64,000 bases of DNA from an uncultured virus (IMG/VR IMGVR_UViG_3300043419_001095) (taxonomy: Duplodnaviria > Heunggongvirae > Uroviricota > Caudoviricetes). The stretch lies in IMG/VR virus record IMGVR_UViG_3300043419_001095. One strand, 5' to 3'. Position numbers and translations under genes: made by a program. This document shows positions 6,426 to 28,350 of the stretch, one piece after another (position 1 is the stretch's first letter; every line of letters starts with the position of its first letter). A model generated the notes under the pieces. That model worked only from the letters and a program-made list of their open reading frames with translations, was not told the origin of the DNA and did not search any database.

Positions 6426-7081
6426 GGCCCTGGTGACTCCGACTTAAGTGGAATACGAAGCATACCATCTCGGTATTCGTCACGACGACGGCGACCCTGC
6501 TGCTCAGTGCCCAAGCCCTGTATGGCCTCTTTGTAGGCCGCGCGGAAATACTGCATCATTTCCGCAGGTCCCTTGGTGTAGCTGTAAGCCTGGATCAAGC
6601 ATGCATACAACAGCGCCTCCGGCGCGTTGTTGCTGATCCAGGTGGTCTGATTGGTTGAAGACAGTTGCGCGGGGCGATAGATATAGCCCAGTTCCACGCT
6701 GTAATTTTGATTTGGCGTGGGTGCAATGTAGAAAGTGTTCTGGTCCCACACTGAATAGTACTTGGGCGTGCCCTGCGTAGCGCCGTTGGCCCAATACTCC
6801 TTCATGAAGGACGTGTCTCGGAAGTCCAAGAAAATCTGGTCTCCATTGGAGGCCGTCAAGATCATGTAACGGTGCGTGAGCAGGTCAGATGGGGCAGTCA
6901 GGAACTTGTTGCCCTGAGTCATGTTGCCCGTAACTTCCAGCTTGAACACGTCCAGGTCGATCTCGCGGAGAATCTGGTTCTCCGCCATCGTGATGAAGGT
7001 GTTGATCACCGGCTCGGTAAAGACGTTGCTCCCTACCTCGGTGTAGTTGCGGATGTTGGTGACAAGTTCGTTGTAGTTCAT
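6422..7081 (-). CDS. head-tail adaptor/tail tubular-type protein
   Basis: Likely start MNYNELVTNIRNYTE at 7081 (ATGA overlap); GTPKYY...IAPTP...ALLYACL motif of podovirus adaptors. Confidence 0.7.
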   Translation of the reverse strand: MNYNELVTNIRNYTEVGSNVFTEPVINTFITMAENQILREIDLDVFKLEVTGNMTQGNKFLTAPSDLLTHRYMILTASNGDQIFLDFRDTSFMKEYWANGATQGTPKYYSVWDQNTFYIAPTPNQNYSVELGYIYRPAQLSSTNQTTWISNNAPEALLYACLIQAYSYTKGPAEMMQYFRAAYKEAIQGLGTEQQGRRRRDEYRDGMLRIPLKSESPGP

Positions 7082-7428
7082 GTGATGCTCACAGTCACTG
7101 ATCCGACAACACCCTGCGCGATGAGCGCCTGGTCTTGTACGTACGGCTGCATGTTGGTGCCGCCTCGCACGCTGCCATAACTTTGAAAAGCGGTAAAGCC
7201 TGGCGCGCCAACAAAGACGGACACAGGCTCGATGCGATCGGGACGCGGATCGCGCAGGGCAATGGCGTCGCCCCTGTAGCGCAGGGGCTCGAGTTGCGGC
7301 TCTTTCGGCTCGTAATCGTCTGGACACACCATGAAGCCGCGCCAGTTCTTGCGCAGGGTGTTGTACTGATACCGCTGGCCGCAGTAGTCGCACAGTCCAT
7401 AAGAGAATTTGCCGGTCGCAAAAGCCAT
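7078..7428 (-). CDS. conserved Cys-containing virion-module protein
   Basis: MAFATGKFSYGLCDYCG...VCPDDYEPKEPQL...DPRPD; start placed at 7428. Confidence 0.7.
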   Translation of the reverse strand: MAFATGKFSYGLCDYCGQRYQYNTLRKNWRGFMVCPDDYEPKEPQLEPLRYRGDAIALRDPRPDRIEPVSVFVGAPGFTAFQSYGSVRGGTNMQPYVQDQALIAQGVVGSVTVSIT

Positions 7429-9056: not shown

Positions 9057-9358
9057 TACGCAGCCGCTCCGCCGTAAAACATGAGCGTTACGCTGGTCAC
9101 TTGCGCATCATTGACGTCAATGAACACGCCGTCCGGGAACAGGATGCCAACGTCAGGAAGGATGATGTCGTAAGCACCGGCTGACGCCGGAGTGATGATG
9201 GTCATTAATGCAGTACCGGCTGACGTCGACCCATTCTTCAAAGAAAAAGATGACGCCGTTCCAGTGCATGTGTAGTAGAGGCCAGCAACGCGAGTTCTCC
9301 CCGCGACTGCTCGGGCATCAGCAGTCTTAGTGACTGTTTGGATGTTGCTGTTGCTCAT
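9056..9358 (-). CDS. small virion structural protein
   Basis: 100-aa beta-rich protein with GILFPDGVF motif, downstream of capsid genes. Confidence 0.65.
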   Translation of the reverse strand: MSNSNIQTVTKTADARAVAGRTRVAGLYYTCTGTASSFSLKNGSTSAGTALMTIITPASAGAYDIILPDVGILFPDGVFIDVNDAQVTSVTLMFYGGAAA

Positions 9359-16229: not shown

Positions 16230-19200
16230 CTATCGACGCGATTTATTTTTGATTTCAGGGCGGCTAATGGTGGGAGGCATCGCACGACGACGTGTGAGCT
16301 CCGCCTCTTCCCCTTCATTCAAAGTGGACGGGGTCAAAGCCGTTCCAGCCGTGCTTGCGGCTTTTCCAAAAAGTCCCAGTGCGTCTGTCGGTGACATGTC
16401 CATACTCCGCACGAAATCACTCACCTGTTGGCGTGCACTACGGGGAGCCATGGGCTTGTTGCCGTAGGGCGATATGGCCTGGGAAGGGCTGAATATGCGG
16501 TACTCAGGCTCAAGGGCCGTGGCCCCTGATCCACCATAAATGGCTCCGTCATATCCCCGCCGTTGCAGTGTCTTGACCGTCTTGGGATCGTCCAGAATTG
16601 GAAAAATCTCCGTGTAAAGGCTGTCTAAGTCCTTGGGGTTTTTCTTCATCAGGTCAAGCACCGACGTGTAGCCCTTGGCATCTGCCAGCTCATCAAAGGC
16701 TCCTGTGCCCTCAATTCTGTCGGCGTTCTCCCGCACGACACGGTCAAATTCCTTTTTGCCAAGAGCCTTGCGCAGGACCGGGAGGTCAATGAACGGATCG
16801 CCAGGAGTGTTAATCAAGGGCTTGCGAATGCTCAGCTGCGCTGGAAATACCTTCATGGCCTCTGTGACGGCATTGAGGTTGTTGGGCTCAGTTGCATACA
16901 GATTAGCAGCATCCCTGGTGCCGAAGCTATAGGAGCCTGATTCGGTGGAAAGCCTGTCCGAAGGTCCGTACTCGCCTCGATAGGCCGTGACAGGCCTACC
17001 TTCTTTGTCCACGGCCTTGGTCCCCTTGAGCGCATTTACCATGCCGCCCTTGTTATATTCCTGGGGTTCTTCCTGCCTGCTTTGCGCTTCCAGCTCTACC
17101 AGCAGTCGGCGCGCAGACGGATCACGCACCGTCTTGCCCAGATGCTCCTTCAAGTTGGCCCGTTTTTTCTCGGCGCTTGGCACGGTTGTCGGGAATGGAG
17201 CCTTGCCCACATTCGCACCGATTGCCGATGCGTTTTTCATCCGCTCCGCAAAATCATCGGGCAGTTGGCCAGAGCCGAAGTACTTCGCCCGCTCCTTTTC
17301 CGTCAGTGTCTTAAACGCCTCATTCCGACGGGCGTTGTCCAAATCCGTGAACCTCCCCGGCGCACGGCTGGCCAAGAGACGGTCAAGCCCCGCGCGCGCC
17401 GCGCCCACAGCACCCTTAACCAAAGGTGCGGCAATCATCTCCGGATACGAACCTTCAAGACCCTGCTCACGTTCAAGCTGCGCCCTGTAAGCAGGGCTGG
17501 ACATGTCGCCCTTTTCCAGCACGCTGACAAATCCGCCCTTGGCAAAGCTGCGCTTGCTCAAACTCTTCTTGGCAAGGGTCTGGCCTTCAAGGGTGGGCGC
17601 GCCGAAGGTGTCCGCTCCCAGGCCACGGGCCTTGTTCCGCGCTGCGTTGATCTTGAGTTGGTACACGCGGGCAAGCTCTTCCATCTGCTCACGGGCAGTG
17701 CCCATGTTCTTGGTCTCAGCTGCCTCCTGCGCGCTTGGCGGAGCGAAGGCCATGCTCTTGGATGCCGACAAGGAAGGCATCTTGAGCGACATGTTCTTGT
17801 CGGCCTTTGGCTCACCGCCCGAGCCCCGCGAAGTGCGCTTGACAGAGCGGCGCATCGGCTCAACCGGGCTGGCCTCAGTGACGTCAGCCAGGAGTTTTTG
17901 TGCATTGTCAAAAAGGGCTGCGCCCGAGTCCTGGCCCCCGCCCATCTGCTGCTGCAGGTACTCGTCAAGCGAGGCGCTGCCCGTGACCTCTCCGCCGTCC
18001 TTGAAGAACGCAGGCATGGCCGGGGCCGCGACTACGTTGCCAAGGCGATCGGTGCGAGTGCCAAGGACGTCTGACAGCTGCGCATTCTGGCCTGCGATTC
18101 GAGCGGTCAGCTGACCTCTTCTGATTTCGTCCTCTGTGGGCAGCGTCGCACCAGCAACCACATTGCCCATGCGGTCGGTCGTTGTGCCAAAGACGTTCGA
18201 CAGTTTCTTGTAGCTGCCCAAGGTGTGAGGGTCCAAGCCTCCACTTCTTCTCATGCTTCCTTGAGGCGCAGGCTGGATGATCCCGGAAGTCCCACGCATG
18301 TCAGGTGGGTTGATTCCAGACATCTCGCGCCTGAGCACCTCGTCCTCAAAGGCGTTCGGGCCTGAGCGCAAGGTGAATGGTGCGGGGGCCACGGACCCTG
18401 GTGGGAGTGGCGCGGGCATCGCAGGCGCTGCCTGCCGTGGTTGCATGACCGTAGGCGTGAACGGCGTTGGCGTCACGGGAAGCCGGATCGGGATGTTGAT
18501 CTCGCTCACAGGGGGCGCTGCCGTAGCAGATGCGGGAGTTGGTGCAGCCGGCGCTACGGGCGCGGCTGCAGGCGGTGTCAATGCATCACGGATTTGCTGC
18601 TCGGTAAACCCGGGGTTGGCATTTAAAAGTCCGCGCATCTCCTCGTTCGAAACGGCTGGAGCGCTCGTCGTAGGAGCAGGTGTGGTGGGTGGCACAACTG
18701 GAGGCGGAGTTACAGCCGCAGGAGCCGCAGGGGTAGCCGCTACTACGGGAGGCGCGACCGTGGGGGCCACTGGAGGGGCAGCTACTACCTCAGGCACGAC
18801 AGGTGGTGGTGTCACGACTGGCGGCACGACCGGTGGCGGCGTCACAGCAGGCGGGGCGATGTTCGCGTTTACCTGGCCGGGTAGAGTGGCCCCAGGAGTC
18901 ACCGCATTCACTTGGCCAGGAAGGGTGGCACCGGTGGTCAAAGCTGCAAGATCGCTTGCGGCCGAGCCTGCAAGGGCAGGAAAGCCGTCCCCGCTGCCGA
19001 TGGCAGGGAAACTGCTGTCACCACTGAAGCCGGCCTCAGCATCAGCGCGGGCGTTTTCCGCTGCGTCCTGCCTGTCCAGTTCTGCAAAGTCTTCCGCTGC
19101 CGAAGCGCCGCCAAGGGATGGAGAGCCGCCCGAGGCAATGACCCCATCGCCTGCGACGGTGGAAGGAGCCCTGCCGTCAAACGCGTTCAACGCCTCGCGG

Positions 19201-20318
19201 GCTGCCCCGTCAGCTGGTCCAAAGACGATGTCTGCGCCAAGGCCAGGGAGAACATCTGCGCCGAGACCCGGCACAACACTGCCGCCGACCAGCGCGGCCA
19301 GATCACCCTGGGCAGTACCGCCGCCAAGAGCAGCTGCAGCGTCTGTCTGTGAGATGTCCCCCGCAGCGACGGCGTCCGCCAAGGCTTGTGCATTGCTTGC
19401 AGCGGCATTACCAGCAGCGTCTTGTAAGTCCAAGGCTGCGAAGTCTTCCCTGGCCGATGGAGCGGCTGGCGCAGAGGCCACACTGCTCGCCAATAGCCGG
19501 TCGAACATCGAAGGCATTGAGGCCGAAGAACGTGTCGAAACAGAGCCAGGGCGCACAGAGGTCGAAGGCGTTACCACGCGCGAAGGGGAAGCGTACAGGG
19601 GAGGGTTTGGCTTGAACGTGCTGCGGTTTGTCGCAGGGGTAAAGCTCGACCGGGAACTGGTTGTTGTCCCGCGCATCACAGGAGCAGCGGCCTTCGGAGC
19701 ACTGAAAGGCGAAGAGGCCGCCGTTGTTCCACGCATCACAGGAGCTGCCGCCTTCGGAGCACTAGACGAAGAGACCGCTGGTGGGCGGCTTGTCAAAGCT
19801 GCGCGGCGCGCAGCTTCTTCTCTTTGAGCAGCGGCACGACGGTCAGCTTCCTCTTTCTGCATAGCCGCACGACGGTCAGCTTCCTCTTTCTGCATAGCCG
19901 CACGACGGTCAGCTTCCGTTTGCTGGGGAGTCTCGGGCGGGCGGACCGCCACTGGAGTGGCCGCTGGTGGGGTCACCGCCGCTGGGGCAGTAAGGGCATT
20001 TAAATCGGCTCTGGCTGTTCCAGCGGCCGGGGCTACTGCCGTTGGGGCAGGGGGAGTAAACCCCTGAGAGATCAATGCTTCGCGAACCTGCGCTTCGGAA
20101 AAACCTGGATTAGCGCTTACCCGTGCGCGGAACTCTTCCTCCGACAGAGGCATGGGGGAGGCTACGGGCGGAGGCGGCGCTGCAGAGAAAGTGCGCCCCT
20201 GAGAAATCAATGCCTGGCGAATCTGCGCTTCGGAAAAACCAGGATTAGCTCTTACAAGCGCGCGGAACTCTTCCTCCGATATAGGGGTATTGGCCGCTTG
20301 GTTTGTTGCATTACTCAT
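16230..20318 (-). CDS. large low-complexity polyvalent-type protein with C-terminal ADP-ribosyltransferase-like domain
   Basis: Pro/Ala-rich with internal repeats; C-terminal TKAVDKEGRPVTAYRG...VFPAQLSIRKP...LQRRGYDGAIY...EYRIFSPSQ resembles ART-PolyVal. Confidence 0.7.
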   Translation of the reverse strand: MSNATNQAANTPISEEEFRALVRANPGFSEAQIRQALISQGRTFSAAPPPPVASPMPLSEEEFRARVSANPGFSEAQVREALISQGFTPPAPTAVAPAAGTARADLNALTAPAAVTPPAATPVAVRPPETPQQTEADRRAAMQKEEADRRAAMQKEEADRRAAAQREEAARRAALTSRPPAVSSSSAPKAAAPVMRGTTAASSPFSAPKAAAPVMRGTTTSSRSSFTPATNRSTFKPNPPLYASPSRVVTPSTSVRPGSVSTRSSASMPSMFDRLLASSVASAPAAPSAREDFAALDLQDAAGNAAASNAQALADAVAAGDISQTDAAAALGGGTAQGDLAALVGGSVVPGLGADVLPGLGADIVFGPADGAAREALNAFDGRAPSTVAGDGVIASGGSPSLGGASAAEDFAELDRQDAAENARADAEAGFSGDSSFPAIGSGDGFPALAGSAASDLAALTTGATLPGQVNAVTPGATLPGQVNANIAPPAVTPPPVVPPVVTPPPVVPEVVAAPPVAPTVAPPVVAATPAAPAAVTPPPVVPPTTPAPTTSAPAVSNEEMRGLLNANPGFTEQQIRDALTPPAAAPVAPAAPTPASATAAPPVSEINIPIRLPVTPTPFTPTVMQPRQAAPAMPAPLPPGSVAPAPFTLRSGPNAFEDEVLRREMSGINPPDMRGTSGIIQPAPQGSMRRSGGLDPHTLGSYKKLSNVFGTTTDRMGNVVAGATLPTEDEIRRGQLTARIAGQNAQLSDVLGTRTDRLGNVVAAPAMPAFFKDGGEVTGSASLDEYLQQQMGGGQDSGAALFDNAQKLLADVTEASPVEPMRRSVKRTSRGSGGEPKADKNMSLKMPSLSASKSMAFAPPSAQEAAETKNMGTAREQMEELARVYQLKINAARNKARGLGADTFGAPTLEGQTLAKKSLSKRSFAKGGFVSVLEKGDMSSPAYRAQLEREQGLEGSYPEMIAAPLVKGAVGAARAGLDRLLASRAPGRFTDLDNARRNEAFKTLTEKERAKYFGSGQLPDDFAERMKNASAIGANVGKAPFPTTVPSAEKKRANLKEHLGKTVRDPSARRLLVELEAQSRQEEPQEYNKGGMVNALKGTKAVDKEGRPVTAYRGEYGPSDRLSTESGSYSFGTRDAANLYATEPNNLNAVTEAMKVFPAQLSIRKPLINTPGDPFIDLPVLRKALGKKEFDRVVRENADRIEGTGAFDELADAKGYTSVLDLMKKNPKDLDSLYTEIFPILDDPKTVKTLQRRGYDGAIYGGSGATALEPEYRIFSPSQAISPYGNKPMAPRSARQQVSDFVRSMDMSPTDALGLFGKAASTAGTALTPSTLNEGEEAELTRRRAMPPTISRPEIKNKSRR
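19670..19920. repeat. tandem coding repeats (33-bp x3 and 60-bp-period x2)
   Basis: GCACGACGGTCAGCTTCC three times at 33-bp period (EADRRAA); GCATCACAGGAGC...CCTTCGGAGCACT twice (APKAAAPVMRGTT). Confidence 0.8.
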
Positions 20319-20358: not shown

Positions 20359-21816
20359 TCAATAGTACTCCGGCACAAGCTCCCGCTTTTCGCTTTCCTC
20401 GTTGTCGTCGGTGGCCAGGCTGATGAAGTTGCCGCGCCGGAATCGGTCCATGGCCATGGTCGTGCTGTCCACCATGTCGTCGTTGTCGCCGTTCGGGAAC
20501 GCCGCGCATTCTTCGACAAGAAGCTCAGCCCACTCCGTGTCCGGGGCCCAGACCATGCCGGCCTCGAACACAGGAGCCACGGCGTTGGCCCGCGCAATCT
20601 TGTCCGTGCCCGACCTGCGGCCACCGGGCGAGTACATCGTCACCGGAATGCTCATCCTGCGCAACTCCTGCTGCAGCGGCGTGCCCGTGGCCTTCGCCTC
20701 AATCAGCACGTTGTCCGGCTGCCAGTGGTCGTACTGCTCCTTCGCAATACGCTTGAGCTCTGGGAAGTCCCACCTACCGCGCTTGACATCAAGCAAGATG
20801 ATGGACGCCCCCGAGTCCTCGTTCAGGTAGAACACGCCCCAGGTCGTGATGACAGAAAAGTCAGCCGTCTCCTTCTTGGAGTAGGCCGTGTCCATGGACT
20901 GGATGATGTAGTTCACCACCGGCGGATCGTCGTGTGGCCACACGCGCCACCACTCCCGTTTCAGGATCGCGCCCTCGTCGTTCGTGGGCTGCTGCTGGTA
21001 CATCGCGTTCCACTTTTGCACCGACAAAGTGGCTTTGACGCCCTCGAGTTCCTCGATCTTCCAAAAGCCTGGCCACAGGGGCTTGCCACTGGGCATGATG
21101 GCCGGGAACTCGATCACCTCCCACTGATCCGCGTTCCGTGATTTTTGCGCCTTGAGTAAGCGCGCCGTCAGGTCCTTCGTCCCCCAGCGCGTCATCACGA
21201 TCACGATCGCGCCGCCTGGTTGCAAACGCGTGCGCGGGCCAGAGATGTACCACTCCCAGGCGTTGTCCAAAGCAAGCTCACTCATCGCGTCCTGCTCCGA
21301 GTGCGGATCGTCAATGATCAAGACGTTCGCCCCACGGCCGGTCATCGCACCGCCCACACCAACAGCAAAGTATTCCCCGCCCTTGTTCGTGTCCCACCGG
21401 CCAGCCGCCTTCGAGTCCTGCTTCAAGGTCACATCAGGAAACACCTCCTTGTAGGTGTCCATGTCCATCAGGTCACGCACCTTTCGGCCAAAGCGCACGG
21501 CGAGCTCGCTGTTGTGTGTCGCTTCAATGGCCTTGGTGCTCGGATCACGGCCCATGAGGTACGCAGGCAGGAGGTAGGACGCGAATTCAGACTTCGTGTG
21601 CCGAGGCGGCATGTTGATGATCAAACGCTTCAAGGACCCAGCGGCAATGCGGTCGAAGGCCTTGGCCATGATCGCGTGGTGCTCACCAAGGATCGCGTTT
21701 GGCCAAACATAGCGCACGAAGTCCAGGAAGCTGCTCCTGGCCTTCTCTTGCGAGTTAAGTTGTGCGAGTCGGTACTCAAGGCGCAGGCGGTCCGCTTCAA
21801 TGTCGTCAGGGATCAT
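20359..21816 (-). CDS. terL: terminase large subunit
   Basis: Walker A-like MPPRHTKSE, Walker B LIIDDP, VMTRW, nuclease SMDTA...DDMVDS; start placed at MIPDDIE. Confidence 0.93.
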   Translation of the reverse strand: MIPDDIEADRLRLEYRLAQLNSQEKARSSFLDFVRYVWPNAILGEHHAIMAKAFDRIAAGSLKRLIINMPPRHTKSEFASYLLPAYLMGRDPSTKAIEATHNSELAVRFGRKVRDLMDMDTYKEVFPDVTLKQDSKAAGRWDTNKGGEYFAVGVGGAMTGRGANVLIIDDPHSEQDAMSELALDNAWEWYISGPRTRLQPGGAIVIVMTRWGTKDLTARLLKAQKSRNADQWEVIEFPAIMPSGKPLWPGFWKIEELEGVKATLSVQKWNAMYQQQPTNDEGAILKREWWRVWPHDDPPVVNYIIQSMDTAYSKKETADFSVITTWGVFYLNEDSGASIILLDVKRGRWDFPELKRIAKEQYDHWQPDNVLIEAKATGTPLQQELRRMSIPVTMYSPGGRRSGTDKIARANAVAPVFEAGMVWAPDTEWAELLVEECAAFPNGDNDDMVDSTTMAMDRFRRGNFISLATDDNEESEKRELVPEYY

Positions 21817-21949
21817 GGGGGTCCGTTTGGTTCTGGAATTGCAAAAATTTTGACACACTTTTCGTTATTTCACAAAGGGGGCCCTTTTTCCTTCCCCGGG
21901 GTCGAAAACGGTTTCACGTGAAACCTACCGTGTGAAACAGGGCTAAAGC

Positions 21950-22560
21950 CCGCGACGCCCGCGACCCGGCCCGTTTTTTGGGGCCCGGGGTGGGTGGGTA
22001 CTCACTTACGCGCCAGGGCGCGCGGACCCTGGACCACGGCCCACGGATCGCGGCCACCGGCCACCAGGTCCAGGGCGCGCGGATCGATGTCCCTGGATCG
22101 CGGACCATGCACCAGGTAACGGCCACCAGGCGGCCAGGCTCGCGGCCACCTGGTCGAGCGGATCGCGGCCACCTGGGCGCGCGTGCTGCAGCTGGTGCAG
22201 GGAAACATAATGCCCGCACCAGGTGGCGCGCCGGATTATCGATAATCGTTAAGTGTCATTCAGATAATCGGCGAATCATTATCAGATAATCTTTATTTGA
22301 TTATCTGATTATCTCTTAATCGATTAGCGGATTATCTCGCCAGGTGCACTAAGCGCGCGTTAGTAGGTCACCGGCCCGGCCAGTCCAGGGCCACCGGGTC
22401 CCGGATCGGGGACCCTGGACCAGGTCGGCCAGGGGTACGGTACGCGGGCCACGGTCCAGGCGTCGACCAGGCACGGACCCTGGGCAGGCTCGGCCACCAG
22501 GCAGGCGAGCGGGTTTCGACCAGGGAATTAAACGTTTACTTATGATCGGTACGGTACCGG
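21950..22560. repeat. non-coding segment of short GC-rich repeats (probable genome-end/packaging region)
   Basis: Mosaic of GGACC, GGCCACC, GGATCGCGG and CCAGG units with no credible ORF, directly upstream of terL. Confidence 0.5.
22234..22336. repeat. AT-rich cluster of GATAATC/GATTATC heptamers
   Basis: Six exact copies (22234, 22241, 22263, 22285, 22299, 22307) plus one at 22330 and a variant at 22277; includes a 14-bp palindrome and an 11-bp inverted repeat. Confidence 0.85.
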
Positions 22561-22564
22561 GCAC

Positions 22565-22590
22565 AAAAAAGCCCGCCACCTGGACGGGCT
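22565..22590 (-). terminator. intrinsic terminator closing the early region
   Basis: AGCCCGTC-CAGGT-GGCGGGCT-TTTTT. Confidence 0.8.
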
Positions 22591-22613
22591 CGGATCGGTG
22601 GAAATCGGCCAGG

Positions 22614-22838
22614 TCAGGCGGGTATACCGGCCAGCTCGGCCAGCTCGGTCAGGGCCTGGTCGGCCAGGTCCAGGGCGCGCGCGCGGTCGCGGACCTGGTG
22701 CTCGGCCACCATGCCACGGCCTGGGCGGGTAACGGTGACCAGGTAACAGCCCCAGGCCTGCGACCAGGTCACGCGGACCAGGCCAGCACCGGCCACGGCC
22801 ACCAGCTGCACCAGCTGCAGGCGAGCGCGCGCGCTCAT
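22614..22838 (-). CDS. hypothetical early protein
   Basis: 74 aa, ATGA overlap with the upstream gene, followed by a terminator. Confidence 0.6.
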   Translation of the reverse strand: MSARARLQLVQLVAVAGAGLVRVTWSQAWGCYLVTVTRPGRGMVAEHQVRDRARALDLADQALTELAELAGIPA

Positions 22839-23428
22839 ACTGCACCCCTAACGGCCATCGCGGACCGGATCGCCAGGTAATCGCTCTCGGACATGTTCGC
22901 CAGGGCGTCCACCAGGCGGGAATAGTGGCTCGGGTGTACGGCCATATCCTGCAGGGTGGCGACCACTGCGCGGGCTTCGGTCACCAGGTCGGCCACGGGC
23001 TCGGGCTCGGGCTCGGGCTCGTCCAGGCACCAGGGAGCCGCATCGTAACCGGCCAGGCCCCGGCCAATGGCCGACGGGTTACCGTCCGGATCGGCCAGGG
23101 CGACAGCTGCGCGACGGATCGCCACCAGGTAGCCAAAGGCGTCCGAATCATTCCATCGCGGCCAGTCACTGGCTTGATAGTCGAGACAATCGCAGGCCTT
23201 AACAATGGCCACCGGGTCCAGGGTGACACCGGCCGAACGGTCCAGGCCACCAAAGGGCACCAGCTCGTCATCGTAGCGGCCATCGTAACGGTCAGAAAAT
23301 GCCGCGCGGTTTGCACCGGCCAGCATGTGGGCGACAGCATCGGGCGACGTGTCCAGGTCAACACCGTGCGCGACGGCCCAGGCCACCAGGGCCGAAACGT
23401 GGTAATCGGATAAAACAATGCAGCTCAT
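22835..23428 (-). CDS. hypothetical early protein
   Basis: 197 aa; IVKACDCLDYQASD motif; EPEPEPEP linker from a 6-bp tandem repeat. Confidence 0.7.
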   Translation of the reverse strand: MSCIVLSDYHVSALVAWAVAHGVDLDTSPDAVAHMLAGANRAAFSDRYDGRYDDELVPFGGLDRSAGVTLDPVAIVKACDCLDYQASDWPRWNDSDAFGYLVAIRRAAVALADPDGNPSAIGRGLAGYDAAPWCLDEPEPEPEPVADLVTEARAVVATLQDMAVHPSHYSRLVDALANMSESDYLAIRSAMAVRGAV

Positions 23429-23430
23429 GA

Positions 23431-23802
23431 TTAAACCCCCACGCGAACATCAGCGAGCGCGGCCTGCAGGGCCAGCTCGGCCAGGTCGGCCAGCTCGGAA
23501 TAAGTAACGGCGACGGCCACCAGGTCGGCGAGCGGGCGCTGGGCGACGGCGACACCGGCCAGCAGCTGCTCGGCCATGCCAGGGCGCGGGCAGTCCAGGG
23601 CGAAGCGCTCCCAGGTCACGCCATCGGCCACGCGGTGGAACACGTCCGACGCACCGGCCACCATAACGGGCCAGGCTTCGCACATAACGGCCACGCCATC
23701 GGCCACCAGCATCAGGTCACCGTGCCGGATCGGCTCGGACTGTGACCAATCGTAGGCGCTCGCCATGTCCAGGTCGCGCAGGTCGAAAATTTTCGTTTCC
23801 AT
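23431..23802 (-). CDS. hypothetical acidic early protein
   Basis: Start METKIFDL behind the AGAAAGTGAGAAAGAC leader. Confidence 0.7.
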   Translation of the reverse strand: METKIFDLRDLDMASAYDWSQSEPIRHGDLMLVADGVAVMCEAWPVMVAGASDVFHRVADGVTWERFALDCPRPGMAEQLLAGVAVAQRPLADLVAVAVTYSELADLAELALQAALADVRVGV

Positions 23803-23850
23803 GTCTTTCTCACTTTCTTGGTTGATCCCGGCCACCCGGCCGGGGCTTTT

Positions 23851-23880
23851 ATTTTAGTCTAATAAATCAACTGAGCGCAA
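23851..23880 (-). promoter_or_regulatory. sigma70-type early promoter
   Basis: TTGCGC-18 bp-TAAAAT. Confidence 0.6.
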
Positions 23881-23881
23881 C

Positions 23882-23910
23882 AAATAAAAAAGCCCGCCAG
23901 GTGGCGGGCT
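23882..23910 (-). terminator. intrinsic terminator
   Basis: AGCCCGCC-ACCT-GGCGGGCT-TTTTTATTT. Confidence 0.85.
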
Positions 23911-23930
23911 CGGTGACCAGGTCGGCCAGG

Positions 23931-24140
23931 TCAGCGCATGCGGAATTCCCGGGCCAGGTCGTCGCCACCATGGCGACCAATCCACCCCCGGCCGGTCAGG
24001 CCCCAGGGCGTGCGCTCTATCGTTATTTGATTTTCCCCCCAGGTCAACTGAACCCAGGTCGCGCCATCGTTCAAGGCTTTATGCAGCGCAGCGCGCAGGG
24101 TCGGCCCGCTCGGTTTTTTGGTGTATTCAATCGAGCGCAT
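23931..24140 (-). CDS. hypothetical early protein
   Basis: 69 aa, WVQLTWGENQI...GRGWIGR; directly follows the DUF932 gene. Confidence 0.65.
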   Translation of the reverse strand: MRSIEYTKKPSGPTLRAALHKALNDGATWVQLTWGENQITIERTPWGLTGRGWIGRHGGDDLAREFRMR

Positions 24141-24142
24141 GA

Positions 24143-25156
24143 TTAAACCCCCACGGCCAGCAAATCGACGGCCCGAGCTTTGAGCGCTGCACCAGTGCCA
24201 AACCAGGCGGACTCGATCCGGGTGTTATTCGAGCGGCCACGCTCGTGGTCCACTAGCTCAGTCACCGCGTTAAGCATGGCCCAGCGAGTACCGGCCACGC
24301 CTGGAAGCTCAGACCCGATGGCCTGGCCGTTGAAGAGCTGCATTATGCGGACATAAGCCTTGGACTCAGCCACCGGGCGCGCGCTTGTGTGATAAGGGCG
24401 CAGCAGCTCGGCCACAAATTCGTCGGCCTGGTCCTGATCCATGCTGGCCCCGGCCAGCTGGCGAGACTGCACCAAAAACCCCTCCCAGGCATTGGCGACA
24501 ATCCCCAGCTGTAGGCGCACCGCTTCGGCGTCGAATCGCTCGGAGTGCAAAACCCGAACAGCGCTTTTCAAATAGCCGGTATTTTTCTCGGCTTCGCCCT
24601 GGATCACTCGCCCGCCACTGTACCCGCCGACGGCGGCAGTAATGGTGTTATTGCAAACCACGCGAATGGCCGTGAATTTAGCCACGGTCGCCATCGTGCC
24701 ATCGTATGACGTGCCCAGCAGTAAATAAGGCTTGACCAGGTCACGCGACACCACGGGCGCAGCATCGCCCACGCTCGCCAGGGCCCAAACCCGGCGGCCG
24801 TCGCTCAGCGCGCCAGCTGTTTCAAGCTCAAACCCGCCCAGCTCGACCAGCTCGCGGAAAAAATCCATTACCTGGCCAGGCTGCACCACGTTATAAGCGC
24901 TCGACACCACGGCCAGGGGCGCGCCAGTGTCCGAACGGTGCAGCACCTTACGAGCGGGCCAGGTTTGCAGCTCGGTCGCGGCCGGTGTCGAATACTTCAC
25001 GGGGCTTTCGAGCACGGTATACCCGAGCCCGGCCTGGCGGGTCCAGGTATCAATATCGGCCCCAGGGGTCAAAGCCTGGCCCAGGCCATGCCATGGGGTG
25101 CGGCCGGTGTATGCAATAGCCGCGCGGCCGGTGGTGGTGTCGATCATGTGAGCCAT
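24143..25156 (-). CDS. DUF932 family phage/plasmid protein
   Basis: MAH...PWHGLG...RSDTGAPLAVVS...ETAGAL.DGRRVWALA...TAIRVVCNNT...WAMLNAVTELVDH. Confidence 0.85.
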   Translation of the reverse strand: MAHMIDTTTGRAAIAYTGRTPWHGLGQALTPGADIDTWTRQAGLGYTVLESPVKYSTPAATELQTWPARKVLHRSDTGAPLAVVSSAYNVVQPGQVMDFFRELVELGGFELETAGALSDGRRVWALASVGDAAPVVSRDLVKPYLLLGTSYDGTMATVAKFTAIRVVCNNTITAAVGGYSGGRVIQGEAEKNTGYLKSAVRVLHSERFDAEAVRLQLGIVANAWEGFLVQSRQLAGASMDQDQADEFVAELLRPYHTSARPVAESKAYVRIMQLFNGQAIGSELPGVAGTRWAMLNAVTELVDHERGRSNNTRIESAWFGTGAALKARAVDLLAVGV

Positions 25157-25209
25157 GTCTTTCTCGCTTTCTTAAAAAGTGTCACCGGGCGAAAGTGCCC
25201 GGTGATTTA

Positions 25210-25239
25210 ATTTTAGTCTAATATTTTTCGGCTTGTCAA
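25210..25239 (-). promoter_or_regulatory. sigma70-type early promoter
   Basis: TTGACA-18 bp-TAAAAT, then hairpin TCACCGGGC...GCCCGGTGA and the AGAAAGCGAGAAAG leader. Confidence 0.8.
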
Positions 25240-25253
25240 CAAGTCAACAAAAA

Positions 25254-25943
25254 TTATTTCACCAGGCCCAGGTCTCCCACAACATGATGGCGCAGCAGCG
25301 AGCCAGGCGGCAACGAGCGGGCAAAGCGCTGCAGCTCGGCCGCATCATCCTGGTGGCCGTCGGTTTTCGTTTTCTCCCAGGCCAGGCGAACGGGCCCGCC
25401 ATTACCATAACACCCGCCAGGGGTATCGGAGCCGACCAGGGCCTGGCCGCTACCGTGCGCGACGAACACAATCACATAATCGCGGTCCCCACGTGCGCAC
25501 AATGGGCGGCCGCCACCACAATCGGCGCAGCTGAAATTATCGGCCAGCTCGGCCGGGCACTGAGCAAAGCGCACGCCCTCGACCGTATACGGCCAAACCG
25601 TACCGGCCGGGGCGGCCACCACGGCCGGGCGGCCGATGGCGACGGCGGCCAGGGCCTGGTCGATGGTGTCGCAGCTCGCATTAATCACGGTCTCGCCAGG
25701 TGCAGGCATGGGCAGCAGCTCGGCCGCAAAATGCGAGTAAGTCCAGGCCTGGCCGCTATGGGGCACGGCCTGGCGCACGGCCGCCAAATAATCCGCATCG
25801 ATCAGGTCGGCCGCGTGCTGGCCCTGGGGGTTGAGCGCGCAGGTTTTTGGGCAGGTTGAAAATACATTGTGGCCACCGGCGCGATAAGTTACCGCGATGG
25901 GGCCCGTTTTTTTGTTGCCAGAGTGTTTAACGGTCTTAAGCAT
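25254..25943 (-). CDS. Cys-rich early protein (DUF7227-like, possible Fe-S protein)
   Basis: SGNKKTGPI...TCPKTC...WTYSH...CPAE...SCADC...LC...FVAHG...GCY...RHHVVGD. Confidence 0.7.
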   Translation of the reverse strand: MLKTVKHSGNKKTGPIAVTYRAGGHNVFSTCPKTCALNPQGQHAADLIDADYLAAVRQAVPHSGQAWTYSHFAAELLPMPAPGETVINASCDTIDQALAAVAIGRPAVVAAPAGTVWPYTVEGVRFAQCPAELADNFSCADCGGGRPLCARGDRDYVIVFVAHGSGQALVGSDTPGGCYGNGGPVRLAWEKTKTDGHQDDAAELQRFARSLPPGSLLRHHVVGDLGLVK

Positions 25944-26085
25944 GATCGGGCACCTCTTGAATTTTCAGGAGGACGCCAATGTCGGCATTTTCCAGCTCGT
26001 TCAAGAGATAGCCCTGCAGGTCTTCCAGGGTCTGGATTTCGTCGTTTTCATTGTCCGGTAATAGGACGATGGTCAGTGCTCGCAT
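25936..26085 (-). CDS. small acidic protein (49 aa, not in ORF track)
   Basis: MRALTIVLLPDNENDEIQTLEDLQGYLLNELENADIGVLLKIQEVPDHA; has its own promoter and the conserved leader. Confidence 0.7.
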   Translation of the reverse strand: MRALTIVLLPDNENDEIQTLEDLQGYLLNELENADIGVLLKIQEVPDHA

Positions 26086-26140
26086 GATTTTCTCGCTTTC
26101 TGTCTTTCTGGTGGCCCTGCGACTGCCTGGCCTGGAAATA

Positions 26141-26168
26141 ATTTTAATCTAAAAAACCAACTTGTCAA
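26141..26168 (-). promoter_or_regulatory. sigma70-type early promoter
   Basis: TTGACA-16 bp-TAAAAT. Confidence 0.7.
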
Positions 26169-26176
26169 CTGGCTAC

Positions 26177-26205
26177 AAATAAAAAACCCGGCGCATGGCC
26201 GGGTT
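26177..26205 (-). terminator. intrinsic terminator
   Basis: AACCCGGC-CATGC-GCCGGGTT-TTTTATTT. Confidence 0.85.
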
Positions 26206-26228
26206 ATCAAGAAAGCGGGCGGACCGGG

Positions 26229-26450
26229 TCAGGGTCGCCGGTCGGCCAGGGCCTGGTCGGCTTCAGCTGCGCATGCATGCCAGGCGGTCCAGGTGATAAG
26301 ACCGGCGTCGGCATTGGCCGGGGTTTCGGTGGCCAGGACGTCAGCCGAATAACGGCGAACGGCTTCCAGGATAAAAGCCTGCATAAGCGGGCCCGTGCTG
26401 GCCTGGTCCATTAGGCGGGCAATGAATTTTGTATTGGTTTCGCGTGTCAT
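26229..26450 (-). CDS. hypothetical early protein
   Basis: Start MTRETNTKFI with GAGGTG RBS; GPLMQAFILEAVRRY. Confidence 0.7.
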   Translation of the reverse strand: MTRETNTKFIARLMDQASTGPLMQAFILEAVRRYSADVLATETPANADAGLITWTAWHACAAEADQALADRRP

Positions 26451-26460
26451 TATGGCCACC

Positions 26461-26814
26461 TCATGAGCGGATCGAAAAAGTATTGTTCTGGAAAAAGTCC
26501 CGGATCGCTTCATCGATGTCCAGGTTTTCGGTTAGCTTGTCGGGGTCGATCTCGCCGGCCAGGTCAGACAAATCGATGTCGCTCGCGATCTCGGACAGCT
26601 GGCCATCAGTCAATTCGAGCGCTAAGGCCGAAAGGTTGATCTGGTTTGCCAGCCCTTCCAGGTCGATGCGCTCGGCCACGTCGGCCAGCTGGGAGCTGGT
26701 CACGGCCAACAGTTTGGACTCCACTTCGGCCATTTCCTGGCGCACCATCTCGGTCACCATAGGGCGCAGCTGCTCGGCCAGGTCTTTTACAAGGGCTTCA
26801 AAAATGTGTTGCAT
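26461..26814 (-). CDS. highly acidic early protein
   Basis: 117 aa, 25 D/E versus 8 K/R; repeated IDLxxLAxE units; conserved leader. Confidence 0.8.
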   Translation of the reverse strand: MQHIFEALVKDLAEQLRPMVTEMVRQEMAEVESKLLAVTSSQLADVAERIDLEGLANQINLSALALELTDGQLSEIASDIDLSDLAGEIDPDKLTENLDIDEAIRDFFQNNTFSIRS

Positions 26815-26865
26815 GTCTTTCTCTCTTTCTGGGTTACGGCCTTGCGAAGCGCTCGGCCTGGGTGC

Positions 26866-26895
26866 ATTGTAAATCTACTTTTATCAACTTGTCAA
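26866..26895 (-). promoter_or_regulatory. sigma70-type early promoter
   Basis: TTGACA-18 bp-TACAAT. Confidence 0.8.
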
Positions 26896-27035
26896 CTATC
26901 CCCGCCAAATAATTTGTGGAAAAGCCAAAAGCCCAAAAGCCTGGCAATCAAGCCCCTGCTTGTCGTCTGGTCGGGAGGTTTTGGCAGGGGTCGTCTCAGC
27001 GCGCGATAGAGCGCGCGGCGTTCTGAACGTCGCAT
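26892..27035 (-). CDS. small basic/hydrophobic protein (frame ambiguous)
   Basis: MRRSERRALYRALRRPLPKPPDQTTSRGLIARLLGFWLFHKLFGGDS; an alternative 48-aa frame starts at 27042. Confidence 0.45.
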   Translation of the reverse strand: MRRSERRALYRALRRPLPKPPDQTTSRGLIARLLGFWLFHKLFGGDS

Positions 27036-27088
27036 AAGGCATGTCTTTCTCTCTTTCTGTGGTTAGGGCAAACCATTCGCCCAGGGCC

Positions 27089-27118
27089 ACCATAGCACAA
27101 CTGTCGCATACAAGTCAA
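27089..27118 (-). promoter_or_regulatory. sigma70-type early promoter
   Basis: TTGACT-18 bp-TATGGT with extended TG. Confidence 0.6.
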
Positions 27119-27534
27119 CTGGCCACTAAATAATTCCGCAGCTCAGCCCAGCTGATCGCTGTCCAGGGCCATCTGGCCATCGCGGGCGTGTCGATGCCCA
27201 GGTTGACCAGATCAATGGCCTGCTCGCCTGCATACAGCAGCAGCTCGGACTTTTTGGCGTGAGCGGTCCCAGTCGGTTGATATTGCACCAGGATGTAGGT
27301 CGGACATCTCAGGTCGGCATGCTTGATGTGGAAGGCCACCTGGTGCGGCGACAGGTTGACTTTGCGGCCACGCTTGACCACCTTGAGCTCGACCATGACA
27401 AAGTCGCCGTGCGGGAATGCCAGCAGGCAATCCGGTATGCCCAGGTTGACCCTGGACTCAATTCGGGTGAAATGGCAGTTTGGGAGGTTTTCTTTCAGTC
27501 GCTTGTACAGGTTCGCTTCTGGTTTCGCTGCCAT
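27115..27534 (-). CDS. VRR-NUC/Holliday-junction-resolvase-like nuclease
   Basis: E...RIE...GIPD...VELK...LSPHQVAF, a PD-(D/E)xK signature. Confidence 0.85.
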   Translation of the reverse strand: MAAKPEANLYKRLKENLPNCHFTRIESRVNLGIPDCLLAFPHGDFVMVELKVVKRGRKVNLSPHQVAFHIKHADLRCPTYILVQYQPTGTAHAKKSELLLYAGEQAIDLVNLGIDTPAMARWPWTAISWAELRNYLVAS

Positions 27535-28132
27535 CGCCTTCTTCCTCGTCTGGTTCTTCTTCGATCTGCTTGGGCGTCACATCCACAATGGGCCCAGCCG
27601 AGCCGCCACCGTACAAGCGCTTGATCTCTTCGAGCTTGCGCTGCACCTCTTCCTTGCTCATGCTGTCAATGGTGCCGTGTCGGATTTCTTTGCGGTCGAT
27701 GTAAATCGTGCCCAGGGCTTGGCCACGCCGGTACTCAGCCTGGACGGCTGCACCGTATGCACCGGCCTGCAATGCCTGGTCGCGAATGACCTGTAGGTCT
27801 CGCATGTGCCGCTCAAAGGTCGTGCCGTACTTCTCGCCCAACTCGCGGCGGCGCTCCTGGATGGCAGCGACGATATGCGGGCAAATTTCCGGATCGGTCA
27901 GCTCGCGTGCCCGGTTCTTCGCCCATGCTTCGCTGTACCCGGCACGCAAAGCAGCTTCCTTCAAGGTGACGTGGCCATCACCCGCGCAAAACTCTTCGAC
28001 GAATTTCCATTCCTGAGGCGTCAGCAGTTTGGGCTTATGGGGCTTGACCGGTGCGGTCACACGGGCTTCGACAACAGCAGGCCTTCCACCCAGGCTTTTT
28101 CCGGCCAAGAACTTCTCGTCTTTGCCGGCCAT
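27458..28132 (-). CDS. terS: terminase small subunit
   Basis: LTPQEWKFVEEF...EAALRAGYS...ARELT...IVAAIQERRRE HTH signature; AAVQAEYRRGQALG; start placed at MAGKDEK. Confidence 0.75.
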   Translation of the reverse strand: MAGKDEKFLAGKSLGGRPAVVEARVTAPVKPHKPKLLTPQEWKFVEEFCAGDGHVTLKEAALRAGYSEAWAKNRARELTDPEICPHIVAAIQERRRELGEKYGTTFERHMRDLQVIRDQALQAGAYGAAVQAEYRRGQALGTIYIDRKEIRHGTIDSMSKEEVQRKLEEIKRLYGGGSAGPIVDVTPKQIEEEPDEEEGDGSETRSEPVQATERKPPKLPFHPN

Positions 28133-28350
28133 CAGGCAACCCTCCACAGCCGCCAGCCTTCGCCGTACCGGCGGCAAGTAAACCTGGTGCCAGGATGCCT
28201 GCGCGAATACATGTAGGCGGCACTGCGGAGGTTCTTGATCCAGTCTTTGTCCAGGATCATGAAACTGTCGCCAACGGCCATGTCGGGGAATGGGTAGCGC
28301 TCGCGGGGATCGACGCCACCAGGCAGGGGGATGTTCTTTTCGATGTTCAT
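28132..28350 (-). CDS. small conserved phage protein
   Basis: MNIEKNIPLP...RYPFPDMAVGDSF...GWRLWRV. Confidence 0.75.
   Translation of the reverse strand: MNIEKNIPLPGGVDPRERYPFPDMAVGDSFMILDKDWIKNLRSAAYMYSRRHPGTRFTCRRYGEGWRLWRVA

Follow-up and report, generated by a model that had tools for sequence, protein, structure and literature searches.

The stretch analysed here, called the window, comprises 64,000 nt from an uncultured virus of the Caudoviricetes (IMG/VR record IMGVR_UViG_3300043419_001095), in which an island of 5211 nt (positions 21990-27200) is crowded with the short words CCWGG and GGCC; the other 58.8 kb are referred to as the rest of the window. This excess is best explained as the outward sign of a conserved element that acts in cis in this phage lineage. 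Almost all window genes lie on the minus strand, and searches against Pfam and PHROG identified a family A DNA polymerase, UvrD-like and SNF2 helicases, an archaeo-eukaryotic primase (AEP), SU10-type adaptors, a capsid protein, GroES and a large terminase subunit (TerL). The closest named relative was the metagenomic Phage DSL-LC04 (73-75% nucleotide identity), and TerL grouped the window with the HTVC023P-type pelagiphages (56% amino-acid identity to HTVC027P, 52% to HTVC023P). The phage belongs to a high-GC freshwater branch of the HTVC023P type.

The island sits between the TerL gene and a probable gene for the small terminase subunit (TerS; 21.6 bits against Pfam Terminase_2, under the cut-off of 26.1), and the same TerS-island-TerL order was seen in DSL-LC04 and HTVC027P. 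Read in the direction of transcription, TerS is followed by a 139-amino-acid open reading frame (ORF), by cassettes holding small genes, DUF7227 and DUF932, by a non-coding repeat array and a conserved block, and then by TerL (Table 1). Seven sigma-70-like promoters were predicted in the island, compared with 2.4 ± 1.5 in shuffled sequences, and three of them fit the consensus at 11 of 12 positions (minus strand, 26895->26866, 26168->26141 and 25239->25210). Each promoter cassette closes with an intrinsic terminator, and terminators were placed at 26205, 25205, 23911 and 22591. The island is thus a string of separate transcription units, apparently readable by host RNA polymerase. A first-pass annotation had described it as an early region next to a probable genome end; early-type promoter-terminator cassettes and a conserved cis-region adjoining TerL were indeed found, and the end itself is taken up below.

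Table 1. Features of the island and its borders, with positions in the window
Feature	Position	Strand	Remarks
Large terminase subunit (TerL)	20359..21858	-	near border; phrog_38, E 1.2e-111; no enrichment, 0-2 CCWGG per 250 nt
Conserved ~135-nt block between array and TerL	21860..21995		candidate packaging/terminus site and TerL promoter region
Non-coding repeat array, ~570 nt	21996..22565	-	after last terminator; word field densest here
AT-rich insert within array	22230..22345		~8 heptamers GATTATC/GATAATC, both orientations
Intrinsic terminator ending last island cassette	22569..22591	-	9 pairs, T-run; CCAGG/CCTGG in loop
Three small ORFs, no known family	22614-22838, 22835-23428, 23431-23802/23835	-	word-richest coding stretch
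Intrinsic terminator after DUF932 cassette	23890..23911	-	CCTGG in loop
DUF932 gene	24143..25156	-	Pfam PF06067, E 1.7e-52; phrog_1221
DUF7227 gene, Cys-rich	25254..25943	-	Pfam PF23872, E 2.4e-31
Distal part of field	26141..27534	-	promoters 26895->26866 and 26168->26141, terminator, small ORFs, 139-aa ORF
Terminator in distal field	26205->26185	-	from sequence scan
139-aa ORF, PD-(D/E)XK-like motif	27115-27534	-	phrog_2165, phrog_93, families named helicase/endonuclease
Probable small terminase subunit (TerS)	27458..28177	-	far border; phrog_51, E 1.1e-9

CCWGG and GGCC are enriched independently of codon usage and GC content

The first-pass annotation had counted 11 CCWGG and 11 GGCC by hand in positions 22561-22800, which proved exact (at 72% GC), and had judged by eye that the skew runs through the whole island. 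Over its full length CCWGG occurred at 21.5/kb, compared with 4.5/kb elsewhere (CCAGG, 82 sites, 15.7 vs 2.45/kb; CCTGG, 30 sites, 5.8 vs 2.06/kb), and GGCC at 25.9/kb (135 sites), compared with 8.8/kb. The edge of the field was abrupt on the TerL side, at ~21,995, and the excess was gone by ~27.5-28 kb.

We shuffled synonymous codons 1000 times in 10 island ORFs (1454 codons), leaving the protein sequence and the codon usage of every ORF unchanged. The excess persisted, with 87 CCWGG observed against 53.6 ± 4.4 (z 7.7) and 116 GGCC against 82.4 ± 5.3 (z 6.3), values reached in none of the shuffles; under genome codon usage the expectations for these ORFs were 35.0 and 54.3. Nor was the enrichment genome-wide, as 18 large ORFs elsewhere held 156 CCWGG where 149.7 were expected. 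An unbiased k-mer scan of the island returned GGCC as the top 4-mer (z 6.9) and CCTGG as the top 5-mer (z 7.0); a maximal-order Markov scan of 5-mers was uninformative because the sub-words are themselves enriched. CCTGG was raised in all three reading frames (observed/expected 6/2.0, 18/11.2 and 41/25.0), and its one-off neighbours were depleted (CTTGG 0 vs 5.6 and TCTGG 2 vs 10.3 expected). Coding and non-coding DNA were affected alike: the non-coding arms of the array (460 nt) held 20 CCWGG, compared with 2.1 ± 1.4 under a first-order Markov null in which none of 2000 runs reached 20, and both of the terminator loops pointed out earlier contained a CCWGG.

Three other palindromes that had looked frequent fared differently. 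GATC was not enriched (4.6 vs 4.1/kb; 18 vs 18.1 under the codon null), CCGG did not exceed the island's own codon null (37 vs 34.9) and was depleted outside the island (128 vs 180 expected), and GCGC showed a weak, marginal excess only (58 vs 48.7, z 1.9). A general enrichment of palindromes was rejected, being only modest (4-mers 421 vs 350.5, with GGCC dominating; 6-mers 92 vs 76.1). The remark that the DUF932 gene often uses TTT and TAT was borne out: DUF932 and DUF7227 together had TAT:TAC 12:4 and TTT:TTC 9:6, compared with 44:151 and 116:159 in 13 late ORFs. GC content at third codon positions (GC3) was 0.72 in DUF932 and 0.81 in TerL and the polymerase, so that, with the TAT/TTT preference, a general third-position effect does not account for how GC-rich the island is. 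The synonymous shuffle and the frame analysis ruled out codon usage and GC content as causes of the excess. The excess of CCWGG and GGCC is real, and an artefact of neither codons nor GC.

Within the coding part, the four ORFs at 22614-24140 (including a small ORF at 23931-24140) held 34 CCWGG, where 23.8 were expected from their own codons and 12.4 from genome codons, and the in-frame arrangement nnC CTG Gnn occurred 12 times in 198 codons of the small-ORF stretch (22614..23835). Of the 33 CCWGG sites in the DUF7227-DUF932 block, 16 lay in the DUF932 gene, and the conserved CCWGG/GGCC sites of DUF7227 were often paired, as in CCAGGCCTGG. ORFs of the distal field held 20 CCWGG (12.2 under the own-codon and 8.6 under the genome-codon null). 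A fourfold GGCTCG run at 22993-23020 encodes PEPEPEPE in the 197-amino-acid ORF, and in related locus L027 the corresponding position is occupied by a longer GGCCTGGTCGGGCTC tandem; microsatellite-like growth thus extends into genes adjoining the array.

The non-coding array is periodic and strand-polar

The array consists of two GC-rich arms (about 21996-22230 and 22340-22565), with words such as CCWGGTGGCCG, CCGCGATCC and CCCTGG on the minus, or gene, strand. Its ORFs lacked coding-like GC by codon position (0.70/0.68/0.80 and 0.71/0.68/0.62) and had no protein-family match in Pfam or PHROG. For word statistics we pooled 42 distinct non-coding arrays, that of the window and 41 from relatives (266-984 nt; 23,966 nt in total), which were extracted by a terminator regular expression, may include some flanking sequence and are related by descent. 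Distances between CCWGG sites peaked at 7-9, 14-15, 21-23, 28-30, 35, 42-44, 49, 56 and 63-64 nt. The period-7 amplitude was 7.3, compared with 0.5-2.7 for other periods, and identity autocorrelation appeared at multiples of 7. Helical phasing of the sites (10-11 bp) was looked for and was absent.

The words were also oriented. Counts on the TerL-sense strand against the reverse complement were 538:219 for CCTGG, 250:20 for CCTGGTG, 121:5 for CTGGTGG, 139:13 for CTGGTGC, 124:3 for GGTGGCCG and 108:1 for TGGTGGCC. Array by array, CTGGTG was ahead of its reverse complement in 35 of the 42, tied in 6 and behind in 1. The commonest array words on the gene strand were CCTGGTG(G/C), GGTGGCCG and CTGGCCG, and the top five gene-strand octamers of the 64-kb window were CTGGTGGC (18 copies), CCTGGCCG (17), GGTGGCCG (17), TGGTGGCC (15) and GCTGGCCG (15). 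The family [GC]CTGG[TC][GC][GC] was strand-biased in the island of the window (51:18) and in that of the complete relative G002 (54:10). Much of the CCWGG and GGCC count thus derives from longer, oriented words.

Between the two arms lies the AT-rich insert, whose GATTATC cluster looks like an operator or iteron set. Some of its heptamers pair into palindromes such as GATTATCGATAATC. Words of the GATTATC type were found at the same place in the aligned arrays of L009 and L010 and, in similar form (GGATTATC, TAATAATC), in a different block of the array alignment in L049; the alignment blocks examined for L008, L007, L011, L032 and L031 held none. Many arrays have a central near-perfect palindrome instead, of the type GTGTTTGCATGTACATACAAACAC or GTGTTTG...CAAACAC (L062 about 6720-6750, the G006 contig end (L107), L027 about 9120-9170 and the L014 array).

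On the TerL side the array ends at the conserved block, which contains a perfect palindrome, GTTTCACGTGAAAC, at 21911-21924, together with GGGCTAAAGCCC and a GC hairpin with a T6 run. Its boundary with the array reads GGGTACTCACTTACGC, and a near-palindrome, GTGGGTACTCAC, lies at the array edge. The block was kept across 13 aligned sequences, in which the adjoining array was unalignable, and was also present in L027, L062, L058 and L022.

The field recurs beside TerL in related phages

One scan of viral contigs gave 346 TerL relatives, of which 80 loci were kept; the 40 with at least 5 kb upstream of TerL were examined, duplicates retained. In line with the suggestion to repeat the count on related genomes, 30 of the 40 loci carried at least 15 CCWGG (up to 49) in the kilobase beside TerL, and 37 had at least 16 GGCC there. 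TerL and its downstream sequence had 0-6.6 CCWGG per kb, and the excess fell off over about 5 kb. As in the window, the field was one-sided in these 30 loci, with its abrupt edge at the conserved block beside TerL. Five complete relatives showed the same enrichment profile.

The island is not tied to a GC-rich genome. DSL-LC04 has the same island, at 60-64% GC, within a backbone of 47-55% GC, and even in AT-rich pelagiphages the TerS-TerL interval contains a GC-rich spot of 1.5 kb. DUF932 was about as diverged from DSL-LC04 (75.4% nucleotide identity) as were the replication genes (73.2%), which argues that the island has long been kept and is no recent import. In relative L022 (7068-9455) the island is swapped for AT-rich genes (41-45% GC) on the opposite strand, and DUF932 and DUF7227 are absent; this phage, whose TerL is 89% and TerS 83% identical to those of the window, retains a 260-nt heptad array of GGTTCGC/CATGGTG beside the conserved block.

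Contig ends did not locate a genome end. Of the 80 related contigs, about 19 stop 100-1100 nt upstream of TerL; a physical end or long terminal repeat was considered on this basis and rejected, since tandem repeats of the array explain the breaks. Complete relatives (G002, G003, G006 and G010) assemble as circles with 116-127-nt overlaps, which lie at unrelated places in G002 and G003 and inside an array tandem in G006. Among the five complete relatives with the shared enrichment profile, two gave circles whose overlaps, of 118 and 127 nt, fall at unrelated places. The IMG/VR 'direct terminal repeat' of G006 (65,021 nt; contig of L078) is a 127-nt overlap within a 46-nt array tandem. As this end repeat falls inside the 46-nt tandem unit, it reflects assembly and does not mark a genome end.

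HTVC027P carries a structured RNA in its GC-rich spot. A match to the Rfam family Flavobacterium-1 RNA (RF02976) was found on the minus strand of L104 at 7268-7388 (MN698241.1 about 17753-17873), with 90.2 bits against a gathering score of 58.9 and an E-value of 4e-17; the window has no such match. The RNA lies between gp34 and the DUF932-like gp35, with gp33 and gp34 as neighbours. A transcriptome study assigns gp33 and gp34 of HTVC027P to a special early-to-middle expression class (PMC12753301).

We weighed whether the field might act at the RNA level, with an antisense transcript of the array pairing with CCUGGUG and GUGGCCG in early mRNAs and shutting them off. Array and island do share words within each lineage, on the mRNA-sense strand; L022, whose island is replaced by opposite-strand genes, has its array words in the array only; and the equivalent spot in HTVC027P combines a structured RNA with genes of unusual expression (PMC12753301). 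However, the palindromes are enriched in both orientations, no promoter for antisense transcription of the array was found, and Rfam families gave only sub-threshold, chance-level matches in window positions 21-29 kb. We therefore regard such a system as highly improbable.

Sites are conserved at synonymous positions in the island only

We aligned 25 distinct DUF7227-DUF932 blocks (73-89% identical), which contained 15-34 CCWGG and 38-66 GGCC per 1.8-kb block. Between the window and L027, CCWGG was retained in place in 85% of cases, compared with 39% for other words of the same length, and GGCC in 72%, compared with 47%. Gains of sites about equalled losses in four triplets. We then compared four-fold degenerate positions with G or C at the third base and an unchanged amino acid, inside and outside sites. 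Inside CCWGG, 26/27 (L027), 27/28 (L030) and 26/28 (L032) were conserved, whereas outside sites these pairs gave 54-61% (p 1e-5 to 5e-4; across single pairs, p 1e-5 to 1e-3). When 11 relatives were pooled, which are non-independent so that shared ancestry is counted repeatedly, conservation reached 94% inside CCTGG (206/219), 83% inside CCAGG (71/86) and 83% inside GGCC (456/548), compared with 60% outside sites (1090/1816). In the CCWGG-poor relatives L043 (14/23) and L024 (12/19) the CCWGG excess was absent and the GGCC excess was kept.

As a control, the same test was applied to TerL and the portal gene. Conservation there showed no excess inside GGCC (L027, for example, 19/41 vs 230/343 outside), and the summed rows for CCWGG (80/114) lay near the values outside sites. 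A genome-wide repair bias that protects the sites was ruled out by this control. By this measure of sequence conservation, the sites are under purifying selection, or an equivalent local force, in the island only. It had also been proposed that the words are what remains after many asymmetric motifs were purged; conservation of the sites themselves at synonymous positions does not fit this idea.

A non-adaptive origin was considered in three forms: a slippage-prone satellite with spill-over into its surroundings, transfer from a high-GC donor, and GC-biased or very-short-patch-type repair near a recombination hot spot. Hypervariable arrays with tandem units of 7, 10, 46 and 51 nt, a mosaic island (L002 is 92-96% identical on both flanks and 68-76% identical or absent inside) and the depletion of one-off neighbours such as CTTGG are all consistent with processes of this kind. 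They would not, however, predict synonymous positions far more conserved inside sites than outside them in the island alone, nor gains that balance losses in the four triplets. Recent transfer from a high-GC donor was ruled out by the backbone-like divergence of DUF932 from DSL-LC04 and by persistence of the anomaly in a 50%-GC genome, and general GC-biased conversion by GC3, which is not raised, and by the TAT/TTT preference. Overall, we consider a non-adaptive origin very unlikely.

The words turn over between lineages, and the island obeys restriction avoidance

Enriched motifs differed among relatives, as judged against base-composition or first-order Markov expectation. GCWGC was added in L014, L016, L021, L026 and L028, GCCGGC was enriched in L076, L077 and L044, and CGGCCG, GAGCTC, CTCGAG and TCGCGA were enriched in L053-62. 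L058 was enriched in CGCG, GCGC and GATC, and its array is built of GGATCGC heptads (CGCGATC words); CCGGCCG words characterized L044/L053, and the L022 array words (GGTTCGC, CATGGTG) do not spread into its replaced island. TerS/TerL identity to the window was 83%/89% (L022), 83%/91% (L044) and 65%/85% (L058) where the arrays use other words, and 80%/89% (L027) and 83%/94% (L009) where they share CCWGG. The repeats thus fail to co-vary with TerS, a negative result for a packaging-site or TerS-binding array.

This bears on the possibility that the array is a loading platform for a phage-encoded DNA-binding protein, either a small dimer like the ribbon-helix-helix (RHH) protein omega or a packaging or replication initiator. 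Once nucleated on the array, such a protein would spread over weaker sites of the island, initiating packaging or replication or, late in infection, silencing the early cassettes. The array is well placed for this, between TerS and TerL, beside a conserved palindromic block and in an untranscribed spacer that separates a terminator from the TerL promoter region; its heptads are phased as strongly as described above, the site leans towards a 7-bp palindrome, RCCWGGY, and many arrays have an extra central element (GATTATC in the window, GTGTTTG...CAAACAC in L062, G006, L027 and L014). Omega/RHH operators and centromeres of inc18 plasmids are likewise heptad arrays, and T7 has 7-bp arrays, SRL and SRR, beside its terminal repeats. 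These systems resemble the window in having contiguous 7-bp units, in about ten or more copies, within a non-coding spacer, and the T7 arrays adjoin the genome ends. Their words are AT-rich, however, whereas those of the window are based on CCWGG and GGCC; their arrays stay out of neighbouring genes; and an RHH protein was not found in the window island. TerS and TerL are equally conserved whether the array words match or differ, so the terminase is unlikely to be the reader, and a single protein would not read CCWGG, GGCC and GCWGC together. Searches of the island ORFs against Pfam, PHROG and PADLOC returned no DNA-binding family, and selected sites across 5 kb of genes are unexpected for a packaging or replication origin site. 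We consider the platform unlikely.

The rest of the window lacked four 6-mers entirely: CCGCGG (0 vs 24 expected), GGCGCC (0 vs 31), AAGCTT (0 vs 15) and GGATCC (0 vs 12). The same four were absent from the island (0 vs 5.7, 6.4, 0.8 and 1.5 expected), which contradicts the suggestion that it acts as a restriction decoy or exempt region. As the island obeys this avoidance, it is no less open to restriction than the rest of the window, and for this host CCWGG and GGCC count as 'safe' words. The sole exceptions, in which an island tolerates a site that the rest of its genome avoids, were CCWGG in G003 and CAGCTG in G002 and G005. G003 avoids CCWGG genome-wide (34 vs 142 expected), and its island keeps only 34, compared with about 100 in relatives; its top oriented island word is CCGGCCG (15:1). 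CTAG, TATA and TTAA were, like CCGG, depleted outside the island. The absence of the four 6-mers and the depletion of CCGG resemble restriction-site avoidance as known from phages, and the difference is that the island enriches CCWGG and GGCC while obeying the 6-mer avoidance. The absent and depleted palindromes form a clear restriction-avoidance signature, which could help to identify the host; the four absent 6-mers predict four restriction specificities.

CCWGG and GGCC are also methyltransferase targets, of the Dcm and HaeIII type respectively, and the field may be a set of sites methylated by the previous host. In one version, 5-methylcytosine near the end or packaging site would be a 'self' signal to an end-loading defence complex, the analogy being DISARM. 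In another, methylation would gate packaging or replication, as at GATC clusters: P1 pac has seven GATC-containing hexamers and the E. coli oriC eleven GATC, with Dam as the methylase. What the field has in common with P1 pac and oriC is the crowding, well beyond chance, of a short palindrome recognized by a methylase where packaging or replication takes place; the differences are that those clusters span 160-250 bp and not 5 kb of genes, that their methylase is known, and that the arrays of the window are strand-polar and phased at 7 nt. Methylation would call for true palindromes, and the cores are such: non-coding DNA has them enriched in both orientations, and coding DNA in all three frames. 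Larger palindromes such as CCAGGCCTGG were kept in 17-18 of 19 relatives, the lineage-specific sets resemble specificities of type II or orphan methylases (against base-composition expectation only), and G003 behaves as if the motif had a host-dependent cost, with CCWGG avoided and the island field lost. However, no C5-methyltransferase was found among the 89 window ORFs (Pfam) or in any of the five complete relatives (PF00145), so that this account would need an enzyme of the host. A bare palindrome predicts neither the polarity seen in 35 of 42 arrays nor the 7-nt phasing, L022 keeps a polar heptad array (CATGGTG, GGTTCGC) almost without CCWGG, and several lineage-specific motifs may simply result from the repetition of words such as GCCGAGCTGG. 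Methylation as the function of the field is, in our judgement, improbable.

A field of Chi-like words as a tentative interpretation

Enrichment, polarity and conservation together describe a one-sided, selected word field, which is probably a signal for a DNA-handling machine near a genome end. Our tentative interpretation, for which we would claim possibility more than probability, is a field of Chi-like words close to a genome end, read by a host enzyme of the RecBCD type, by analogy with phages LLS and MD8. According to Zheng et al. (Genome Res 2025, PMC12315714), these two phages have terminally clustered Chi sites and no recombination module. LLS has 23 Chi sites, and the Pseudomonas aeruginosa phage MD8 has 32 copies of GCTGGCGC on one strand near its right end, a word that is also the commonest octamer of the MD8 genome; the Chi octamers given there are GCTGGTGG for E. 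coli and GCTGGCGC for Pseudomonas (PMC12315714). The interpretation draws on the match to LLS and MD8 in word type, octamer rank, embedding in genes, one-sidedness, position relative to the terminase and array polarity.

Overall, this suggests a model whose core would be a non-coding array of 0.3-1 kb, 7-nt periodic and strand-polar, that adjoins the conserved block upstream of TerL, with the same words held at synonymous positions through ~5 kb of early-type cassettes beside it. A host end-loading helicase-nuclease of the RecBCD type would enter on the TerL side of the array, where a DNA end would lie, and would immediately encounter dense, short, G-rich words in readable orientation. If these words serve as the host's Chi, the enzyme would switch from degradation to a recombination-promoting mode, which would protect the neighbouring early genes and aid recombination or circularisation. 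CCWGG and GGCC would then be largely by-products of word composition (CCTGG.., ..TGGCC..).

Several features of the sequence are consistent with this model. CTGGTGG matches E. coli Chi, GCTGGTGG, in 7 of its 8 bases, and GCTGGCCG (9:0 in the island) shares 6 in-place bases with Pseudomonas Chi, GCTGGCGC. The 7-nt period is about the densest packing possible for a word of 7-8 nt. By the orientation rule given in PMC12315714, and with the terminase gene placed as at the left end of lambda, the 3' ends of the words would face the inferred end. Turnover of words between lineages whose TerS and TerL are 80-92% identical would be expected of a host-specific signal. The window resembles LLS and MD8 in that a short G-rich word, the commonest octamer, lies within genes, is concentrated in the final few kilobases towards one end and stands mainly on a single strand, and its family SCTGGYSS resembles GCTGGTGG and GCTGGCGC. 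It differs in that its words are no known Chi, that its genome end is a predicted one, and that word density is far higher, with 51 family members in 5.3 kb and a dedicated non-coding heptad array.

A number of observations weigh against Chi-like words. Exact Chi octamers are rare in the island (E. coli 2:0, Pseudomonas 1:0). The palindromic cores CCWGG and GGCC are not mere by-products of longer words: gene-strand CCAGG in the arrays is ~5 times its base-composition expectation (219 vs ~42), with CCTGG at ~8.6 times, and both flanks of CCWGG in the arrays lean towards the symmetric RCCWGGY. Unlike LLS and MD8, the window has its CCWGG/GGCC cores enriched in both orientations, and two complete relatives lack strand bias in their islands, G001 (35:27) and G005 (29:29), for the family [GC]CTGG[TC][GC][GC]. 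The G006 array contains a large tandem expansion with CCAGGTGG on the opposite strand. Most of the conserved sites in coding DNA are CCTGGC/CCAGGCC or palindromic pairs such as CCAGGCCTGG, and the 1.8-kb coding block has a single CCTGGTG. Transcription of the island heads towards the array, a direction in keeping with entry from the TerS side; the words would then stand in the unreadable orientation. Finally, the phage may not depend on host RecBCD, as it encodes a PD-(D/E)XK nuclease gene and as a 'DNA ends protecting protein' is annotated in the record of a relative. An annealing protein or Gam family was not found by Pfam among the 89 window ORFs, many of which lack any family.

A broader idea, which we regard as doubtful, joins Chi-like words and methylation in a host-specific 'self-mark' gradient: words that disable the host's end-loading surveillance would be gathered beside the DNA end that is met first. 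The words could be read as sequence only, like Chi, or as methylated palindromes, and would be swapped at a change of host, from CCWGG/GGCC to CCGGCC and then to CGCGATC or CATGGTG. The heptad satellite might serve as a fast-evolving reservoir that seeds words into the adjoining early genes.

Freshwater relatives of this phage are common in metagenomes, as indicated by the 346 TerL relatives from a single viral-contig scan, and a limited literature search on motif enrichment, the phage group, DUF932 and Chi found no published description of such a field. Over 5 kb, synonymous positions appear to be selected for DNA words and not for protein, and the turnover of words between close relatives would provide a readable record of what the DNA-end machinery or methylome of the host recognizes. 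If the words are the host's Chi, they would be the first candidates for Chi in uncultured freshwater hosts and would offer host prediction a new feature; if they are methyl marks, the field would be an epigenetic camouflage device. In either case, fields of this kind break up metagenome assemblies and mislead tools that judge gene transfer or codon usage by composition.

Further observations on the window

The genes of the island gave few leads beyond their families. DUF932 and DUF7227 had no relatives of solved structure, a protein atlas returned nothing beyond DUF932 and no informative relatives of the three small ORFs, and a search for defence-system families in the island gave one weak PADLOC match, in TerS. 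A search for the host through TerL relatives in bacterial genomes gave just two contigs of metagenome-assembled genomes, from unrelated phyla, and was uninformative. Repeats also occur away from the island: exact direct repeats of at least 30 nt lie inside structural genes at 19834-19883 and 4824-5000. A 1362-amino-acid ORF holds a 33-nt tandem and a 483-amino-acid ORF a repeat pair spaced 66 and 138 nt. At the place that matches the repeat at 19834-19883, L009 has a 60-nt tandem.

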